Source: Armatimonadota bacterium (lineage in GTDB: Bacteria > Armatimonadota > SYMT01). Taken from it: a DNA stretch of 64,000 bases. The notes under the pieces are model-generated. The model ran no database searches. It was not told the DNA's origin and saw only the letters and a program-made list of their open reading frames with translations. Below are positions 9,345 to 18,564 of this stretch, piece after piece. The stretch lies in contig JBKBRF010000020.1 in assembly GCA_046292385.1 (NCBI GenBank), positions 1-64,000 of the forward strand, read 5' to 3'. Position 1 is the stretch's first letter; each line of letters begins with the position of its first letter. The position numbers and the translations under genes were made by a program.

Positions 9345-9622
9345 CCGCTCCCACCACGCGTGTCTGCTCCCCTCGCTTCCGGGGTGCCGAACGGTGCCAC
9401 TCCCCCCACGCCAGGCACGGGAGGTTTGGCGGCTGTAGCAAGCAGGGTAGCTTACAGCGGCCTCCTCGAGCTTCACCGCGGCTGCTTTCAGCACGTACTC
9501 GCCGACGCTCGTTTGCCTCACACGGAACCAATTCCCGTGCGCGAGGAGGCATTCTCTGTGGGCACACGGCGGCTACGGGAGCGCCTGCGGATCACCAGCG
9601 GATGGAAAGGCAAGCAATCGAT

Positions 9623-10990
<1,368 letters not shown>

Positions 10991-11019
10991 TCCCCGTCCC
11001 GCATCTCTAGAGCCGAGCG

Positions 11020-11052
11020 ACCCGCCTTCCACCCTGGAAGGCGGGTTATTCT
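11020..11052. terminator. Hairpin between convergent transcripts (glf and the radical SAM operon)
   Basis: Perfect 12-bp stem ACCCGCCTTCCA / TGGAAGGCGGGT followed by TATTCT. Confidence 0.7.
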
Positions 11053-11065
11053 GTCTGGTCGGTGA

Positions 11066-11266
11066 TTACCCTCTCCAGATGAGCCGGCAGGCGAGAAACA
11101 CCCCAGCACAGGCGCCGAAAAGACCGAGGAGCAGTGCTGTTGGAAGACTCGCGTTCGGCAGCACGAGTACGATGCTGCAGCCGCCGATCGCACCGGTGAG
11201 CGCGACCATGGTGAAGAGCACCGCGCCCAGGCAGCCCCGAAGCAGCGGAAACAGTTTATCTCTCAC
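11066..11266 (-). CDS. Small membrane protein (66 aa) with a GAIGGC motif
   Basis: Two hydrophobic helices; GTG start overlaps the upstream TGA (GTGA). Confidence 0.6.
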   Translation of the reverse strand: MRDKLFPLLRGCLGAVLFTMVALTGAIGGCSIVLVLPNASLPTALLLGLFGACAGVFLACRLIWRG

Positions 11267-11577
11267 CAGCTGCCGCTCCGGAAGTGCGGGAGCAGCGTTC
11301 CCACGCAGACCAGCGCCCAGAAGGCGGCAATCCAGAGCGGCTTGCGCAGAATGCAGCGGGAGGAGCGCTCCCCGGCGGCGTAGGCGGCGAGGAAGAAGCC
11401 GGCCGCCAGTGCCGCGACCGCCGTCAGGTGATACTGCGGAGGCAGCACCAGCCGCAAGAGCAGCAGGATCGTGCCCGCTTTGCAGAAGGTGAAGGCGATC
11501 CCCTCCAGCGCTTCACCCCGGGTCTTCTGCGTGGGCGGGGGAGCCAGGGCTTCCTCGGTCAGCGGCTCAGCGGCCAT
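11263..11577 (-). CDS. Small membrane protein (104 aa)
   Basis: About 3 TM; FTFCKAG and SRCILRKP; overlaps both neighbours. Confidence 0.7.
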   Translation of the reverse strand: MAAEPLTEEALAPPPTQKTRGEALEGIAFTFCKAGTILLLLRLVLPPQYHLTAVAALAAGFFLAAYAAGERSSRCILRKPLWIAAFWALVCVGTLLPHFRSGSW

Positions 11578-11995
11578 CCGTTTCTCCTTCGGCGGCGGCG
11601 TAGGCGGCGTCCGCGCCGGTGAGCGTCCGCGGGTAGAGGACCATGTAAGCGACCGCCATCACCGCCGCCAGGATGGTGCCGCCCAGCGCCTGCTCGGTCG
11701 AGACCAGCCCCCGCGCCAGGTAGAGGATGCCGACCAGCGCTTCCAGCACGCCGCGGACGATGCCGACCTGCACCCACACCACGTGCCGGTGCGGGTCCCG
11801 CGCCGCCGCGACGTAGCCGAGCCCCAGGGAGAAGAGGGCGCAGCCCCAGAGCGAGACGAGGAACTGAAAACCGGCGGGCACCTCCGTGAAGCCGAAGGCG
11901 GCGCCGACCCGCACCGGCACGAAGAGCAGCGCGAGCCCCAGCAGGAACAGGATCGCCGCATCGAAGACCAGCACCACCCGCAGGGTGAGAAGCAT
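11567..11995 (-). CDS. Four-TM membrane protein
   Basis: MLLTLRVVLVFDAA..., four hydrophobic segments; GGAGG upstream of ATG 11995. Confidence 0.75.
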   Translation of the reverse strand: MLLTLRVVLVFDAAILFLLGLALLFVPVRVGAAFGFTEVPAGFQFLVSLWGCALFSLGLGYVAAARDPHRHVVWVQVGIVRGVLEALVGILYLARGLVSTEQALGGTILAAVMAVAYMVLYPRTLTGADAAYAAAEGETDGR

Positions 11996-12015
11996 CTCCC
12001 TTACCTCCGGAGCTC

Positions 12016-12354
12016 CTACCGCAGGAGCCGGATCACACCGAGGAAACCTACCACCGCCAGCACGCCCGCTAGCCCGGCGATCGCCAGCATCGGCACCATC
12101 TCTCCGATCCCGCGCGTGTCGCCGGAGCCGGCCGTGATCAGGACGATGCACCCGCCCATCAGTGCGCCGCCTGCCGCGATGATGCCGCAGACCGCCGCGA
12201 GCATCGCCAGCAGCACCGCGCCGATCAGCCGGGGCAGGCTGGGAGGGGTCCGCGCTCCCGCGGAGGGCTGCGAGGCGCCGCAGTGGTAGCAGAAGCGAGC
12301 CCGCGGCGGCAGGGTGGTGCTGCAGTGGGGGCAGCGCGTCGTGTCAGCAGACAT
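12016..12354 (-). CDS. Zinc-ribbon membrane protein
   Basis: CPHC-x10-CYHCG zinc ribbon, then two TM segments containing GALMGGC. Confidence 0.8.
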   Translation of the reverse strand: MSADTTRCPHCSTTLPPRARFCYHCGASQPSAGARTPPSLPRLIGAVLLAMLAAVCGIIAAGGALMGGCIVLITAGSGDTRGIGEMVPMLAIAGLAGVLAVVGFLGVIRLLR

Positions 12355-13084
12355 GCTCGGGCCCTCCCGTTTCGGTCGCCGGCCTCGGCAGCGGCCTCGC
12401 CCGCCAGGCCGAGAGCGCCAGCGCGGCGGCTCCGGCCAGCGCCAGCTCCAGGCAGATCCACTGCGCCGTGGAGAGCCCCGCCAGGACCGGCGTGCGCTCC
12501 CGGAATAGCTCCACGCCGACCCGGCCGAGACCGAACAGGACCAGGTAGGCCCGGAAGAGATCGCCCTCCCGAGGCACCCGTCGCCGCACCGCCAGCAGCA
12601 CCCCCAACGTGAGCGCGGCCCAACCGGCGGCGTAGAGCTGCGCGGGGTGCCGCCACGCCTCGTGCTGGTAGACCGACCACGGGACGCCGGACGCTACTCC
12701 GTAGCAGCAGCCGTTGAAGAAGCAGCCGAGGCGTCCGACCGCCTCCCCGGCGGGAAGCGCCAGCGCGAAGAGGTCGCCGGTAGACCGGCGGATGCCAAGC
12801 CGCTTCTTCGCGATCTCGACGCAGACCCACCCCACCACGATCCCGCCGATCAGCGTGCGGCCGCCCAGGCGTGGGTCGAGCAACGCCAGCGGCTGGGCGG
12901 CGAGCGTGGGCCACTGGCTGACCACCCACTCGGTCAGCCGGGCTCCGGCCACACCCCCGGCCAGCCCCGCCAGCACCACCCACCCGATTCCCTCCGTGGC
13001 GAGCTTGCGCTGCCGTGCCGCGAGGTAGAGCACCAGGCCGCCGACGAAGTAGGCGAGGGTGGTGAGCAGTAGGCCCGGTGTCAT
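12344..13084 (-). CDS. Lgt-family (prolipoprotein diacylglyceryl transferase-like) protein, atypical paralog
   Basis: GRLGCFFNGCCYG, RHPAQLY, GRVGVELFRE; the HGG motif appears as TLIGG. Confidence 0.85.
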   Translation of the reverse strand: MTPGLLLTTLAYFVGGLVLYLAARQRKLATEGIGWVVLAGLAGGVAGARLTEWVVSQWPTLAAQPLALLDPRLGGRTLIGGIVVGWVCVEIAKKRLGIRRSTGDLFALALPAGEAVGRLGCFFNGCCYGVASGVPWSVYQHEAWRHPAQLYAAGWAALTLGVLLAVRRRVPREGDLFRAYLVLFGLGRVGVELFRERTPVLAGLSTAQWICLELALAGAAALALSAWRARPLPRPATETGGPEHVC

Positions 13085-13093
13085 GGCGTCTCC

Positions 13094-14638
13094 TCACGCA
13101 TCGATCCGGATCAGCTCCTCGGGAAAGTCGGCCGCGTCGGCGAAGAGCCAGCGCCAGCAGAACGAGTACCGACGCGGGTCTTCCTCGAAGGTTCCGGTAT
13201 GGACGCAGCACTGCCGGATCCGCGCCTCGTGGAAGGTGTGCGCGTCCATGAACATCTTCACCGTGATCCGGAAAGTCCTTTCGGCGGCGCGCTCCAGCGC
13301 CTGCTCGGAGTGGGAGACGCGGCTCCAGAGGCCGCCCAGTAGCTCCGGCAGGCCGGGGACGCAGTCGCACATGCGGCCGAGGTCGCGCATCAGGTCGACC
13401 GCCCCCACGCGGAGCTGCTCCGAGAAGACCCGCTGCAGCGCCCCGGAGCGGAGCAGCTCGGTCACCGGGCCGGACAGGCTGTCGAAAGTGATCGAGTTGC
13501 TCACCAGGTGGAGCCAGCGCTTCAGCTCTTCCCGGCCGATCAGCTGCGGGAGCGACTTCCACTCGTCGCGCGCGGTCCGCACCAGGTAAGTGAGGTCGCA
13601 GCAGTCCCGGTGGGAGCAGGGGAGGGGGATGAAGTCGCCGGCACTCACGAGCCCGCCGGTCTGCTCGCCCAGCCGCCGGAGCACGCCGGTGGGGGTGGCG
13701 CGGGAACGGGGATTGTAGGCGCCGATCCGGCCGGAGCCGAAGACCGGCTGAATCGCCAGCCCGGAGCAGCGGGGGGTGGCGAGGCCGAGCTTCACCAGCT
13801 CTCCGATCTCGTCCTCGTTGACGCCGCGGGCGACCGACGCGACGAGCGTGGTGAAGACGCCGGCTTCGTTCAGCCGCCGCAGCGCCTCCAGCTTTTCCTG
13901 GCCCACCTCTTCGTCCCGCAGCGCGCGGTACGTCTCCGGGCGTAGGCCGTCGAACTGCAGGTAGACCTCCACCCGGCGGCGCTGCTCCCGCAGGAAGTCG
14001 AGGAACCGGTCGTCCCGGGCGATCCTTCGCCCGTTGGTGTTCAGCATCACCCGCGTGATGTTCCGCTGCAGGACCCGCTCGACGATCTCCGGGAGGTCCT
14101 CGCGGAGGGTCGGCTCGCCGCCGGAGAGCATCAGCACCCCCAGCTTGCCGCCCTCGCGCGCCAGCATCGTATCGACGGTGCGGACGATCTCGTCGACGCT
14201 CGGGCGCTCCGGGCGCGGGACCGGGGTGCCGGGAGCGCTGGCGGACGCGTAGCAGGTGGGGCAGCCGTAGTTGCACCGCTCCGTCAGGTTGAGCAGCAGC
14301 ACGCAGGTGTGCTGTCCGTGGGAAGCCGGCAAGCCGTCCCGGTAGCCCTCCGGAAAGCCGCGCCAGTTGTCCGCCCGGTCCGGCACTATGGAGAGCGTGG
14401 GCGTGCTCCAGCCGCGGCGCGCCCGCCACAGCTCCAGGTCCTCCTCGTAGAGCGACTCCGTCTCGCCGTGCTCCGCGCAGAACCTACGCATCCAGACCGA
14501 GCCGCCATGGGAGACGAGCATCCCGTCCTTGAATACGTCCTGCTCGTCGGACCGGCGCGCGCCGCCCGCAAAGCAGGCGGGGCAGACGGTGCGGGTGTAC
14601 TCCTCGATCAGGTAGTCGCGCGGGGGAAGTCCCGACAT
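13094..14638 (-). CDS. Radical SAM enzyme, MJ0619/Tes (GDGT-MAS)-like
   Basis: N-terminal CPAC...CAEHG; CNYGCPTC SAM motif; SGGEPT; LNTNG; YLQFDG; PCSHRDCC; FMDAHTF...RQCCVH...YSFC. Confidence 0.85.
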   Translation of the reverse strand: MSGLPPRDYLIEEYTRTVCPACFAGGARRSDEQDVFKDGMLVSHGGSVWMRRFCAEHGETESLYEEDLELWRARRGWSTPTLSIVPDRADNWRGFPEGYRDGLPASHGQHTCVLLLNLTERCNYGCPTCYASASAPGTPVPRPERPSVDEIVRTVDTMLAREGGKLGVLMLSGGEPTLREDLPEIVERVLQRNITRVMLNTNGRRIARDDRFLDFLREQRRRVEVYLQFDGLRPETYRALRDEEVGQEKLEALRRLNEAGVFTTLVASVARGVNEDEIGELVKLGLATPRCSGLAIQPVFGSGRIGAYNPRSRATPTGVLRRLGEQTGGLVSAGDFIPLPCSHRDCCDLTYLVRTARDEWKSLPQLIGREELKRWLHLVSNSITFDSLSGPVTELLRSGALQRVFSEQLRVGAVDLMRDLGRMCDCVPGLPELLGGLWSRVSHSEQALERAAERTFRITVKMFMDAHTFHEARIRQCCVHTGTFEEDPRRYSFCWRWLFADAADFPEELIRIDA

Positions 14639-14903: not shown

Positions 14904-15128
14904 ATGACGCGTGAAGTAGCCCCCGAAGGTGAGAGTGCAGGCACCGTCTGTGCTTACTGCGGGCTGCGATGGGTGCTTGCAGGGGGCTCCTGCGTTCACT
15001 CCCCGACGAACCAGCACGAGCTTACGGAGAGAAAGCCGGAGAACACCTGCCGGCACTGCGGGGCGAAGTGGATCTTCGCGGGCGGCTATTGTGAGCAGTC
15101 TCCCAGCCGAAAACACGTCCTTCTCTAA
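14904..15128 (+). CDS. 74-aa protein with two tandem CxxCG-xxW-xx-AGGxC-xx-SP-xxx-H repeats
   Basis: CAYCGLRWVLAGGSCVHSPTNQH and CRHCGAKWIFAGGYCEQSPSRKH; GGAGAGG before ATG 14904. Confidence 0.75.
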   Translation: MTREVAPEGESAGTVCAYCGLRWVLAGGSCVHSPTNQHELTERKPENTCRHCGAKWIFAGGYCEQSPSRKHVLL

Positions 15129-16482
15129 CGACCGGGAGCGGGCGCTCGAGCTCCTCAAGCGCTACGGCTGGAACGCCACCTCGTTCCAATCGCTCGAGCC
15201 CGGAATCTCCTACTGGTTCGACAGCACCGGGGCGGCCTGCATCGCCTACCTGGACACTGGTGCCGCGTGGGTGGTCGCCGGAGCCCCCATCGCGCCCCCG
15301 GAGCGGTTTGCGGAGCTGGTGGAGCAGCTCATCGCAGCGGCCGGAGAGGCGGGCCGGCGCGTCTGCTTCTTTGCCACGGAGCAGCGCTTCGCCGGGGCGG
15401 TGCCGCTCTGCTCCGTCCCGATCGGCGAGCAGCCGATCTGGGACCCCTCGGAGTGGCCGGAGGCGCTGCGCGGCAGCCGCAGCCTGCGGGAGCAGCTCCG
15501 GCGTGGACGCGCGAAGGGGGTCTCCGTGCGCCAGGTCAGCCCGGAAGAGCTGGCGGAGCCGGACCCGCCGGTTCGACGCGCGGTCGAGGTGTTGATCGAA
15601 GGCTGGCTGGCACACCGGGCGATGGCGCCGATGGGGTTTCTGGTCCAGGTCTACCCGTTCGACTTCGCCGCGGAGCGCCGGATCCTGGTCGCGGAGCTCG
15701 GCGGGGAGGTGGTCGGCTTCCTGGCGATGGTGCCGGTCTACGCGCGGAACGGCTGGCTGCTGGAGGACCTGGTCCGCACCGCCGCCTCACCGAACGGCAC
15801 GGCGGAGCTGCTGATCGACGGAGCGATGCGCCTGGCCGCGGCAGGAGGGAGCCGGTATGTCACGCTCGGCCTGGCGCCGCTCTCCGGGCGGGTCGGGTGG
15901 CGGCTGCGGCTGGCGCGGGCGCTCGGCTCGCCGCTCTACAGCTTCGCGGGGATCCGCGCGTTCAAGGCCCGCCTTCGGCCCGGCCACTGGGAGCCGATCT
16001 ACCTGAGCTACCCGGCGGGTCAGAGCCGGACGCTCACCTTTTACGACGTCCTCGCCGCCTTCGCGCCGGGCGGTCTCCTGCGCTTCGGGATGGAGACACT
16101 CCTCCGGCGGCCGGAGCTGCCGGTCCGGCTCCTGGCGCTGCTGCTGATCCCGTGGACGCTGCTCCTCGCCACCGCGGAAACCGCACGCTGGTTCCCCGCG
16201 CTGTGGGTCCAGGCGGGGTGGGTGGTGTTCGACGCCGGGCTCCTGGCGGGGCTCTTCGCCCTGGGCGCCCGCTGGCGCCCCTCCCTGGCGACGGTGCTCG
16301 CCTCGCTCATCTCCGCGGACGCCCTGCTCACGCTCCTCCAGGTAGTGGTCTACAACCTGCCCCGCGTCCGAGGCCCGCTGGACTGGCTGGTGCTCGCCGT
16401 CGCGCTCGCCGGTCCCACCCTCGCCGCGCTCTTCCTCTGGTCCGTCCTCGGCCGGAGCGGCTCCGCCCGTTACGACGTCTGA
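15091..16482 (+). CDS. DUF2156 / aminoacyl-phosphatidylglycerol synthase catalytic-domain protein with C-terminal TM helices
   Basis: VAGAPI, RVCFF, IGEQPI, PMGF, SPNGTAELLI, TLGLAPL, LYSFAGIRAFKARL (MprF C-terminal-like); about 4 TM at the C-terminus; start uncertain (GTG 15091). Confidence 0.8.
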   Translation: MSSLPAENTSFSNDRERALELLKRYGWNATSFQSLEPGISYWFDSTGAACIAYLDTGAAWVVAGAPIAPPERFAELVEQLIAAAGEAGRRVCFFATEQRFAGAVPLCSVPIGEQPIWDPSEWPEALRGSRSLREQLRRGRAKGVSVRQVSPEELAEPDPPVRRAVEVLIEGWLAHRAMAPMGFLVQVYPFDFAAERRILVAELGGEVVGFLAMVPVYARNGWLLEDLVRTAASPNGTAELLIDGAMRLAAAGGSRYVTLGLAPLSGRVGWRLRLARALGSPLYSFAGIRAFKARLRPGHWEPIYLSYPAGQSRTLTFYDVLAAFAPGGLLRFGMETLLRRPELPVRLLALLLIPWTLLLATAETARWFPALWVQAGWVVFDAGLLAGLFALGARWRPSLATVLASLISADALLTLLQVVVYNLPRVRGPLDWLVLAVALAGPTLAALFLWSVLGRSGSARYDV

Positions 16483-16623: not shown

Positions 16624-18564
16624 ATGCCGGACGGCGGGAGGAGAACGGGATTGGAGCGTTCAGGGAGTTGGGGATTCGCGCGCCGGAGCGTTGCCGCGTG
16701 GGTTGGGGTGTTCTTGGGGGCTGTGCTGCTCGCAGGCCCGGCAGCTCCCGGCACAATCGCGAATGAGGATTGGATTCGTCCCATGGCGCCGGCAGCGGGC
16801 GGAGAGCACGCTATGGCGGTGGACGACGCGGGGAACGTCTACGTAACCGGCTCGGAGCCCTATTCGTCGATCGTCGTCACCGCGAGCTACGCTCCGGCTG
16901 GGACGGAGCGGTGGGTGCGCCGGTACGACGCGGGAAATGGCCCGAACTATTCCGGCGTGGCGGTGTTCGTCACGCCGAACGGCAGCGTCTACGTCGCCGC
17001 TTCTTCCGAGGAGTGGCCGGGGGGCGACTACATCGCACTCAAGTACGCCGCCGTAGACGGCGCCGAGGAGTGGGTGCGGCGCTTCCCGGCGCAGGGGAAC
17101 GCCCGAGCGGCCGCGCTCGACCAGGAGGGGAACCTCTCCATCATCGGCTGGTCGCGCGCGCGCTCGGAGCAGCAGGACCTCCTGACGGTTAGCTTCGGAC
17201 CCGATGGTGCGGAACGCTGGGCTCGCTGGTACACCGCTGCGGAAGCGACTACCGAGTATCCGGTCGGCATCGCCGTGGACGATCACGGCGGGGTCTACGT
17301 GGCGGGCACCTCCGCCACCGATCCGGTGACGAGCGACTATGTCACCGTCGCCTACTCCACGGATGGAAGCGAGAGGTGGGTGCGCCATTACGATGGACCG
17401 GGCGATAGTCGCGACTCGGCACGGGACATCGCGATCGACGGGGCTCAGCTCTACGTCACCGGCGACTCCTGGCCGGCGCTCGAGCTGCAGAGTGCGGCGA
17501 CCGTTTGCTACGGCCTGGATGGCACCGAGCTCTGGGTGCGCCGTTACAGCAACGAAGAGCGCAGAGTTTCCTACGTCAGCGCCGTCGAGCCGAATGGCCG
17601 GGGTCAGGTCTATGTGGTTGGCACATGCTGGACCTCGAGTACTACGCTGCTGCTCATGCTCGTGTATGGGCCCGATGGAACACTCCTGGACGAGCGCGTC
17701 TTCCCGCAGTTTCAGGGGATCCACACGGCGACCACCGATGCCGCGGGCAATCTTTACGTGCTGGGAGCCGATCCGCGGGATTGGACCGGCTGCCAGACGG
17801 CGAGTTTCAGCGTCGAAGACGGCGCGCTCCGCTGGAGCCGCCGGTACTTCAGCCAGAAGGACCAGAGTCCTGTGGCGCGGGCGTTTGCCATCGACTCCGC
17901 AGGAAACGTCTTCGTCGCGGTGCAGGAGCTCGGACCGATGCTGATCAAGTACTCGCATCGGCCCTCGGACACCCTCGCTCCGCAGCTCGAGCCTCGCTGG
18001 GGCGCTGATGGGCTCGATCTCATCGCCACCGACTCCGGCAGCGGCGTAACGCGGGCGCGGCTGAGCTCCCGCAGTCGGAGCTGCTTCCTGGAATGGGAGC
18101 GCCCGGAAGAGACGCGGCGCGTGCCGATCGGAGCCACTCTCACGCTCGACCCTCCCGCCGAGCGAGCGCTCCTGCGTGTGGTGGTGCCCTCCCGCTTTCC
18201 GGCCCGAGCGGAGTTGAAGATCGAAGACGCGGCCGGGAACACCGACGTCGTCCGTGGGGTGATCAGCTCGTTCTCCCCGCGGTCGGGACGGGTATTCACC
18301 CAGACCTTCAAGCGATTGACCCGCGGCGAGCGGTATCTGACGTTCCGTAATAGCGTGCAAAGAGCTTACAAGAGGCTCAGGGTGCGCGTGAATGGGAAGA
18401 CTGCCATCGCGAAGGGTATTGGGCGCGGTCAGGATCTCAAGCTCGACTTGGAGCCTTGGATGCGCCCCGGAAGTAACAACACGGTGCGGATCAGCGGTGA
18501 AGGCGAGAAGCGCGCCAGCGCCTTGGTGACGATCCTCAGTCGCCCCTTCGCGGTCTCCCCGTAA
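16624..18564 (+). CDS. Secreted SBBP-type beta-propeller repeat protein with C-terminal beta domains
   Basis: Signal-like N-terminus; repeated AVD..GNVYVTG and Y..DG.E.WVRRY units. Confidence 0.8.
   Translation: MPDGGRRTGLERSGSWGFARRSVAAWVGVFLGAVLLAGPAAPGTIANEDWIRPMAPAAGGEHAMAVDDAGNVYVTGSEPYSSIVVTASYAPAGTERWVRRYDAGNGPNYSGVAVFVTPNGSVYVAASSEEWPGGDYIALKYAAVDGAEEWVRRFPAQGNARAAALDQEGNLSIIGWSRARSEQQDLLTVSFGPDGAERWARWYTAAEATTEYPVGIAVDDHGGVYVAGTSATDPVTSDYVTVAYSTDGSERWVRHYDGPGDSRDSARDIAIDGAQLYVTGDSWPALELQSAATVCYGLDGTELWVRRYSNEERRVSYVSAVEPNGRGQVYVVGTCWTSSTTLLLMLVYGPDGTLLDERVFPQFQGIHTATTDAAGNLYVLGADPRDWTGCQTASFSVEDGALRWSRRYFSQKDQSPVARAFAIDSAGNVFVAVQELGPMLIKYSHRPSDTLAPQLEPRWGADGLDLIATDSGSGVTRARLSSRSRSCFLEWERPEETRRVPIGATLTLDPPAERALLRVVVPSRFPARAELKIEDAAGNTDVVRGVISSFSPRSGRVFTQTFKRLTRGERYLTFRNSVQRAYKRLRVRVNGKTAIAKGIGRGQDLKLDLEPWMRPGSNNTVRISGEGEKRASALVTILSRPFAVSP

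Follow-up and report, generated by a model that had tools for sequence, protein, structure and literature searches.

A Tes-like radical SAM enzyme, a second Lgt and small cysteine-bearing membrane proteins form a conserved bacterial gene cassette and a candidate protein-lipid modification system

We describe here an operon of six genes in a 64,000-nucleotide stretch of DNA from an Armatimonadota bacterium (contig JBKBRF010000020.1 of assembly GCA_046292385.1, positions 1 to 64,000; this whole stretch is called the window below). The DNA of the window is GC-rich (0.65-0.73), the source genome comprises 7.0 Mb in 91 contigs, and the nearest protein relatives are named Armatimonadota, Abditibacteriaceae or Fimbriimonadaceae in their source records. 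All six genes lie on the minus strand. The first encodes a radical S-adenosylmethionine enzyme (rSAM, 514 aa, 13094-14638) of the HMPTM/Tes/TrsS superfamily, with an N-terminal Cys3His ribbon, a CxxxCxxC core and a C-terminal auxiliary-cluster domain, and it is followed by a paralog of Lgt (Lgt2, 246 aa, 12344-13084) that belongs to Pfam PF01790 and has seven predicted transmembrane (TM) helices. The third gene encodes a small protein (ZnR, 112 aa, 12016-12354) with a zinc ribbon, two TM helices separated by a loop, the first of them ending in G67-G68-C69, and a basic tail. Three further membrane proteins complete the set: TM4 (142 aa, about four TM helices, 11567-11995, with an ATG start at 11995 and no assigned family), TM5 (104 aa, about three TM helices, 11263-11577, with an invariant A-F-x-F-C-K, T-[RK]-C and P) and TM6 (66 aa, 11066-11266), a two-helix open reading frame (ORF) with a GTG start in which A-I-G-G-C lies 19 uncharged residues past R10. 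We propose that Lgt2 may S-lipidate the cysteine of the small proteins and that the rSAM would then remodel the attached lipid tails, a reading of the sequences that we judge to be about evenly poised between right and wrong.

That these are six co-oriented and tightly packed genes ending at a hairpin, as described in the first-pass annotation of this DNA, is borne out by the ORF coordinates, by junctions of +9, -11, +20, -11 and -4 nt from rSAM to TM6, and by a 13-bp stem (eight G-C pairs) at 11019-11047, assigned to neither strand, between the TM6 stop and the stop of the convergent gene glf (10990). Purine-rich stretches of the GGAG type are found upstream of the starts. No T-run follows the stem on the operon strand, and the region holds 4 terminator-like sites compared with 1.8 +/- 1.2 in shuffles. 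The GC content at third codon positions is 0.88-0.93 in five of the genes (0.92 in TM4) and 0.72 in TM6.

Lgt2 scores 116 bits against PF01790, above the gathering score of 24.9, and 78.9 bits against the equivalog model TIGR00544, under its cut-off of 118.9. The equivalents of R143, R239, E243 and R246 of E. coli Lgt (R118, R188, E192 and R195 in Lgt2) are invariant in 37 homologs, and those of Y26 and H103 are not kept. In the structure of E. coli Lgt the four former residues make up the catalytic centre, R143 and R239 being catalytic, and the active site faces the periplasm (PMC4728403). The AlphaFold2 (AF2) model of Lgt2 has seven helices with a predicted local distance difference test score (pLDDT) of 91.4, and its sole match in the PDB at E<=0.001 is E. 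coli Lgt itself (5azb, TM-score 0.70/0.62). Lgt2 thus has the Pfam LGT domain, the seven-helix fold and the catalytic Arg and Glu equivalents in common with the E. coli enzyme, from which it differs as a second, shorter and lower-scoring copy located away from lspA, and by candidate acceptors in which G-x-Cys stands inside the chain, after a cytoplasmic domain. In the same genome the housekeeping lgt is on contig 25, directly after the only lspA match of the genome and a few hundred bases from it (region 79792-81403), and scores 186 bits against the 116 of Lgt2; this agrees with the earlier suggestion that the Lgt of the operon is a dedicated extra copy. In five of five other carrier genomes tested, the linked copy is likewise the weaker of two or three lgt copies. 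The Lgt signature G-R-x-G-N-F-x-N-G-E-x-x-G reads GRLGCFFNGCCYG in Lgt2, with Cys at the positions of N146 and E151, and GRIGCLLNGCCYG in the housekeeping Lgt. The Cys-rich signature, for which the paralog had been called atypical, was therefore rejected as the mark of a special catalytic site, and as both proteins carry it, it is probably characteristic of the lineage and no sign of lost function. In-frame stop codons (TGA, TGA, TAG) were found in one rSAM and two linked Lgt homologs of other genomes (G106:C24:32890-34386, G052:C2:1044568-1045179 and G154:C1:6003476-6004144); the stops may mark pseudogenes, sites of recoding or errors of sequencing, relatives of the TrsS type being selenoproteins.

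The putative acceptors are the small proteins. The zinc ribbon of ZnR contains C8, C11, C22 and C25 and matches Pfam zinc-ribbon families. Armatimonadota loci carry one to seven such genes in tandem between Lgt2 and TM5, with products of about 90-120 aa in which a CxxC...CxxC ribbon precedes two helices joined by a short loop, and the chain ends in a basic tail; in the genome of the window a full-length match to the family model is found in this operon alone. The family comprises 107 ORFs from 45 sources, and G-[AGLTSVC]-C follows the ribbon in 80 of the 107 tails, compared with 16.4 +/- 3.5 in residue shuffles (maximum 26, 500 shuffles). A Cys close to the first hydrophobic stretch is present in 98 members; position -2 is G in 71 of these, and position -1 is A in 31, G in 17, L in 16, T in 12 and S in 12, so that A, G and S together account for 60 and L and T for 28. 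The distance from the last charge to the Cys has its mode at 19 uncharged residues (29/80), so that the Cys comes at the distal end of a helix that begins in the cytoplasm. The small proteins had been described before as Cys-bearing, and these counts and this spacing support a conserved, lipobox-like Cys in them.

Classical lipoprotein precursors (L-[ASTVI]-[GAS]-C) have in common with these proteins the basic residues, the stretch of about 19 hydrophobic residues, the small residues and the Cys. The small proteins differ from them by the G at -2, by the folded cytoplasmic domain that precedes the helix, and by a second TM helix or a few residues after the Cys. Lipoprotein signals of the PROSITE type have the Cys at residues 15-35 after a basic and then a hydrophobic segment, and [AGS] in position -1; ZnR falls outside this rule, its Cys being residue 69 and standing behind a zinc ribbon, and the local geometry of the lipobox type (basic residue, 19 hydrophobic residues, Cys) is present. 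Of 451 lipoprotein-signal-like ORFs in the same genome, collected with a crude rule that lets in false positives, 13% have G at -2, and LAGC is the commonest box.

The same Cys motif stands behind different N-domains, namely zinc ribbon, GYF and helical. In Ktedonobacterales the small proteins, some of them with a ribbon, end in R-x-[FYW]-[IV]-G-Y-G-L-L...P-x5-[GA]-C followed by 7-13 residues, and the Cys is present in eight of nine cluster members. A Xanthobacteraceae locus encodes two-helix proteins with P-G-L-C, and a Chthonomonadales locus (L067:622-3237) has five tandem small proteins between Lgt and rSAM with a GYF_2-like N-domain, four of which are also zinc-ribboned. In three Chloroflexota genomes the small paralogs have a helical N-domain and L-G-G-[ALT]-C. 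TM6 has the box and spacing of the ZnR family and no ribbon; no BLAST homolog of it was found in the 72 loci surveyed below, the motif is its sole support, and it is the weakest gene call of the operon. It is possibly a ribbon-less second substrate.

The short tails of the Ktedonobacterales proteins, where 7-13 residues alone remain after the Cys, bring up the idea of a lipopeptide factory, in which signal peptidase II would cut before the lipidated Cys and set free short lipidated peptides. An lspA gene is present in the genome, and the copy number and sequence diversity of the small genes are like those of precursors. On the other hand, it is the helix before the Cys that is conserved and the stretch past it that varies freely, in the Armatimonadota proteins the Cys is followed by another TM helix and by a basic tail, and the core cassette is without a protease or exporter. 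We consider this explanation improbable.

The second enzyme of the proposed pathway, the rSAM, matches the Pfam families Radical_SAM (91 bits) and Zn_ribbon_HMPTM (33.5 bits). Its best match in NCBIfam is TrsS (NF045646, 225.5 bits), under the cut-off of 490, and Tes (NF045702) gives 190.5 bits, under the cut-off of 450 and with profile positions 2-313 of 486 aligned. The motifs CPAC...C54-x2-H57-G58, CNYGCPTC, PCSHRDCC and FMDAH...RQCCVH...FC, most of them picked out already in the first-pass annotation, are all present and strongly conserved: in a 40-row superfamily alignment C19, C22, C54, H57, the CxxxCxxC triad, C341, C346, C477, C478, H480 and C494 are invariant or at least 90% conserved. 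The only solved relative that extends past the radical core is GDGT-MAS, the Tes enzyme of M. jannaschii (PDB 7tol, 134 bits, E 5.7e-38), and this alignment takes in the N-terminal ribbon, the core and the C-terminal FMDA...CC.H...FC motif. The AF2 model (pLDDT 89, predicted TM-score 0.90) matches 7tom/7tol over the whole length in Foldseek (7tom E 5.6e-37, TM-score 0.75/0.78, 522 columns); the next matches, SkfB and MoaA, are confined to the core, with TM-scores of about 0.35.

These structural matches bear on the possibility that the rSAM acts on the protein, by forming for instance a thioether or another cross-link near the Cys in the manner of sactipeptide maturases, before or after Lgt2. 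Peptide maturases are usually encoded in just this way, by an rSAM with auxiliary clusters next to tandem precursor-like genes; SkfB ranks second among the structural matches, if in the core only; and the superfamily is chemically diverse. Nevertheless, peptide maturases match the core alone (TM-score 0.35) and GDGT-MAS matches the full length; the Cys would be at the outer membrane face, far from a cytoplasmic enzyme; and a Pfam scan found no recognition domain of the kind used for ribosomally synthesized and post-translationally modified peptides (RiPPs). A protein target of the radical chemistry is in our opinion quite unlikely.

An exhaustive search of 1.84 billion representatives gave 5508 relatives of the rSAM at E<=1e-3 and 305 at E<=1e-30. 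From the best 150 relatives, 91 full-length representatives (400-600 aa) were labelled with NCBIfam models, 18 of them reaching the TrsS cut-off, one more being 0.1 bit short of it, and 3 reaching the Tes cut-off. A tree was calculated with 95 rows, comprising 81 of the 91 labelled representatives (ten were omitted), the window rSAM and 13 rSAMs derived from loci; being the result of a quick search under LG+G4 with midpoint rooting, and with no mixture model or outgroup, it is used here for its well-supported splits alone. The 3 Tes and 19 TrsS rows fall in one clade of 25 rows with a support of 99 in the Shimodaira-Hasegawa-like approximate likelihood ratio test (SH-aLRT), and the window rSAM is placed in a different clade of 13 rows (SH-aLRT 100). 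The Ktedonobacterales group and the Xanthobacteraceae/Phycisphaerae group make up two further clades. The rSAM is therefore built on the Tes structural template, yet it is a member of neither Tes nor TrsS. Its earlier assignment to the MJ0619/Tes family holds with respect to layout and fold, and fails with respect to the bona fide Tes clade, both by curated score and by the tree.

Compared with Tes/GDGT-MAS (7TOL/7TOM), the window rSAM has in common the N-terminal Cys3His ribbon, the CxxxCxxC core, the C-terminal Cys motifs and the full-length fold, at 23% identity and in a separate well-supported clade under the NF045702 cut-off. It is also bacterial and is encoded with, or in relatives fused to, an Lgt paralog and Cys-bearing small proteins, unlike archaeal Tes, which works alone on free diether lipids (PMC8941075). 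TrsS is of the same superfamily, but TrsS-labelled representatives form their own clade beside Tes; in the part of review PMC13188914 at hand TrsS appears solely as an entry in a selenoprotein table, with no function given.

The association of the rSAM with Lgt was followed in 72 species-representative loci encoding a relative of the rSAM (L082 was dropped, with 30% identity over 111 residues). In 52 of the 60 loci whose rSAM is at least 50% identical, Lgt2 is found downstream on the same strand within 2.5 kb; the 8 misses include 5 loci with less than 300 nt of flank, 1 with 1.3 kb and 2 with full flanks. The 12 distant loci (32-37% identity; Ktedonobacterales, Phycisphaerae, Xanthobacteraceae and Chthonomonadales) have the Lgt homolog upstream on the same strand in 9 cases, and two of the three misses are without an upstream flank. 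An Lgt paralog thus stands next to distant rSAMs in Chloroflexota, Planctomycetota and Pseudomonadota as well. Of 151 genomes sampled evenly across the phylum, 35 encode the rSAM and 35 contain an Lgt2-like match above 100 bits, this cut having been chosen post hoc at the gap between 108.7 and 97.6 bits. Both are present in 33 genomes, and in 30 of those the genes share a strand and are no more than 2 kb apart. The Lgt2-like gene occurs alone in two genomes (G103, G130) and the rSAM alone in two others (G061, G141). A weak Lgt match in G141 was rejected as a neighbour of the rSAM, being on a different contig, with no Lgt in the 10 kb of the rSAM contig examined. The window rSAM shares 63-73% identity with the enzymes of another family of the phylum and only 43-44% with those from two members of its own family (comparison of G005 and G021 with G059, G124 and G003), which suggests that the cassette moved laterally within the phylum.

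A similar sample of 151 Chloroflexota genomes contains 22 rSAM loci in 21 genomes. Three Chloroflexota genomes show the order Lgt, 3-4 small paralogs, an rSAM 45% identical to that of the window, and a TM5 homolog. The linkage between rSAM and Lgt is clade-specific. It goes as far as natural fusion, since LGT, zinc ribbon and rSAM are joined in one chain in 2 of 13 long representatives. Among the matches listed for one such fusion, 57 of 120 have all three Pfam domains, some of them named Tepidisphaerales or Verrucomicrobiota, and each half of this fusion is closest to an Lgt-linked unfused pair of a Phycisphaerae genome. Lgt2 as query for longer proteins returned 2 weak matches and no fusion, in a search that its word filter makes a weak test. 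The neighbourhood survey with these fusions answers in the affirmative the question, posed with the first description of the operon, of whether the rSAM-Lgt linkage is conserved; it is so across phyla. In the Ktedonobacterales version of the cassette (L070:7437-8339, L071:7565-8485) the gene after the rSAM encodes an ArsP_1-family permease (PF03773, 117-127 bits), which hints at a thiol or metalloid link there.

It could be argued that a spare Lgt and an unrelated rSAM are neighbours by chance, with small ORFs that are unrelated or spurious. High-GC DNA does yield many chance ORFs, and the coding signs of TM6 are weak. Such an absence of joint function is highly improbable in view of the linkage across four phyla, the natural fusions and the nested phyletic patterns.

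TM5 belongs to the nested patterns. It was found in 48 loci, its residues C32, K33, C75 and P80 are invariant (27 rows), and it is present in 26 of the 151 phylum genomes, all 26 of which have the rSAM; it also adjoins the rSAM in the three Chloroflexota genomes. TM5 is specific to the cassette. No family for it was found in Pfam, NCBIfam or the ESM Atlas, and searches with TM4, TM5 and TM6 gave nothing usable in Pfam at E up to 1 or in NCBIfam (a slightly longer version of TM4, 11567-12007, was used in these scans). NCBIfam has no model naming the small proteins or TM5. TM4 has one homolog alone in the 72 loci (L052, 51% over 123 aa) and is probably a local accessory gene outside the conserved core.

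From the observed gene content, linkage, fusions, folds and conserved residues we infer both chemical steps of the proposed pathway, their order and their product. ZnR, and probably TM6, would insert with the N-domain and the basic residues in the cytoplasm and with G-x-Cys at the outer face of the cytoplasmic membrane. The Cys would then be within reach of the Lgt active site, as this site faces the periplasm and the Cys would be at the outer helix end, and Lgt2 could move a diacylglyceryl (or a related lipid) from a phospholipid onto it. The rSAM would be situated at the cytoplasmic face, and in the natural fusions it is attached to the C-terminus of Lgt, after its last helix. Its radical chemistry may act on the lipid tails at the bilayer midplane, as that of GDGT-MAS does on archaeal tails, so that the tails would be closed into a macrocycle or joined to a tail of another lipid. 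The expected product is a protein with a cross-linked or membrane-spanning lipid anchor, and TM5, with its two invariant Cys, may be a further membrane subunit.

Prediction of an Lgt2-ZnR complex gave a median score of 0.40, with 0.00 for the best of 3 controls, which amounts to weak support; the three runs agree in at least 93% of contacts and the pLDDT of the partner is at least 80. Of 80 solved complexes 58 reach the mark applied to such predictions, as do 2 of 110 mismatched pairs. The passes with scores of 0.60 or less comprise just 7 of those 80 complexes together with both mismatched pairs, and therefore a pass in this range is more often wrong than right.

Several observations weigh against the proposed order of lipidation and tail remodelling. 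The distant locus L077 has full flanks and no Lgt, rSAM and Lgt2 are on different contigs in G133, G021 and G138, and 13 main-clade Chloroflexota loci are without an Lgt within 1.4 kb; the compared genomes are also kin, and the co-occurrence counts therefore overstate independence. On the side of the acceptors, the G-x-C motif is missing from 27 of the 107 family members, and the box is unlike a classical lipobox, its Cys being internal and behind a cytoplasmic domain. The "invariant" G and the Cys conserved at 90% or more in one alignment (A1) lean to the motif, because its 40 rows were hand-picked from 55 short ORFs and motif-less ones were omitted. As for the radical step, the rSAM belongs to neither the Tes nor the TrsS clade, and fusions of superfamily members with methyltransferase, MobA-like, AMP-binding and DUF5714 domains also occur, so that tail-coupling chemistry is not to be assumed. 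These other-domain fusions, in which the MobA-like domain is an NTP-transferase, are P0185, P0243, P0252, P0270, P0205, P0263 and P0223, and the chemistry of the superfamily is probably broad.

A pathway concerned with lipids only would make use of the same enzymes without a protein acceptor: the rSAM would make tail-coupled lipids of the diabolic-acid or branched-tetraether type, Lgt2 would move or re-head them, and the small proteins would be scaffolds or regulators. The full GDGT-MAS fold of the rSAM speaks for this, as does the proposal of bacterial Tes homologs as synthases of branched glycerol dialkyl glycerol tetraethers (PMC8941075), still unconfirmed in the portion of a later paper at hand (PMC11868695). 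The cassette of the window moreover adjoins a gene with an aminoacyl-phosphatidylglycerol-synthase domain. This divergent gene (15127-16482, plus strand) encodes a protein with an LPG_synthase_C domain (phosphatidylglycerol lysyltransferase C-terminal) in its N-terminal part and a hydrophobic C-terminal part, an order which we take to be the reverse of the usual one in MprF. Neither this gene nor glf is matched in any of the 72 loci, and both were therefore rejected as members of the cassette; the lack of conservation of the phosphatidylglycerol-modifying neighbour counts against a lipid-only pathway. Furthermore, transfer to a protein thiol is the sole known chemistry of Lgt, the conserved Cys in tandem, fast-diverging small proteins resembles a set of substrates, and the rSAM is outside the Tes clade. 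We find the lipid-only pathway unlikely.

Returning to lipidation of the small proteins followed by tail remodelling, a more far-reaching version would be that several phyla hold a second protein-lipidation pathway, in which the Lgt paralog attaches a glycerolipid to an internal Cys of dedicated small membrane proteins and the rSAM, working from the other face, welds the tails to another lipid, so that the protein is riveted through both leaflets. This version is tentative, and we would rather expect it to be wrong than right. If it is true, many of the "bacterial Tes homologs" used to infer producers of branched tetraethers would be protein-lipid modifiers. Lipidation by the cassette as such would give lipoprotein biology a substrate-dedicated Lgt and a radical step after lipidation. 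Surveys of genomes and metagenomes widely treat bacterial Tes homologs as candidate producers of branched tetraethers, which serve as climate proxies, and in the portions of the source papers at hand function is proven for none of them (PMC8941075, PMC11868695). In several clades of these homologs the gene is linked to those for an Lgt paralog and for small proteins with a Cys, in some cases by fusion, which offers a different and testable hypothesis and advises caution in taking every Tes homolog as a tetraether synthase. Carriers that are cultured or completely sequenced, such as Ktedonosporobacter rubrisoli and the Abditibacteriota IAD-21, provide material for experiments, and so do the natural fusions.

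The earlier statement that no function has been described for the pairing of these enzymes is consistent with the literature as far as titles and abstracts go. No account of the module was found there in searches on bacterial Tes homologs, Armatimonadota, Lgt1/Lgt2, Lgt/rSAM clusters and rSAM with lipoprotein or thioether, and no paper pairing Tes with Lgt was found; the supplementary homolog lists of these papers may include the clade. A 2026 review of lipid-modifying rSAM enzymes mentions neither Lgt nor lipoproteins, as judged by a search of its text for these terms.

On both sides of the operon lie genes of other kinds. The glf gene (9617-10990, plus strand), which converges on the operon, encodes a UDP-galactopyranose mutase (GLF, 261 bits) with a long acidic C-terminal tail rich in Ala, Pro and Asn-Gly. 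Beyond the divergent gene on the other side, the plus strand encodes a 646-aa protein with SBBP beta-propeller repeats (16624-18564).

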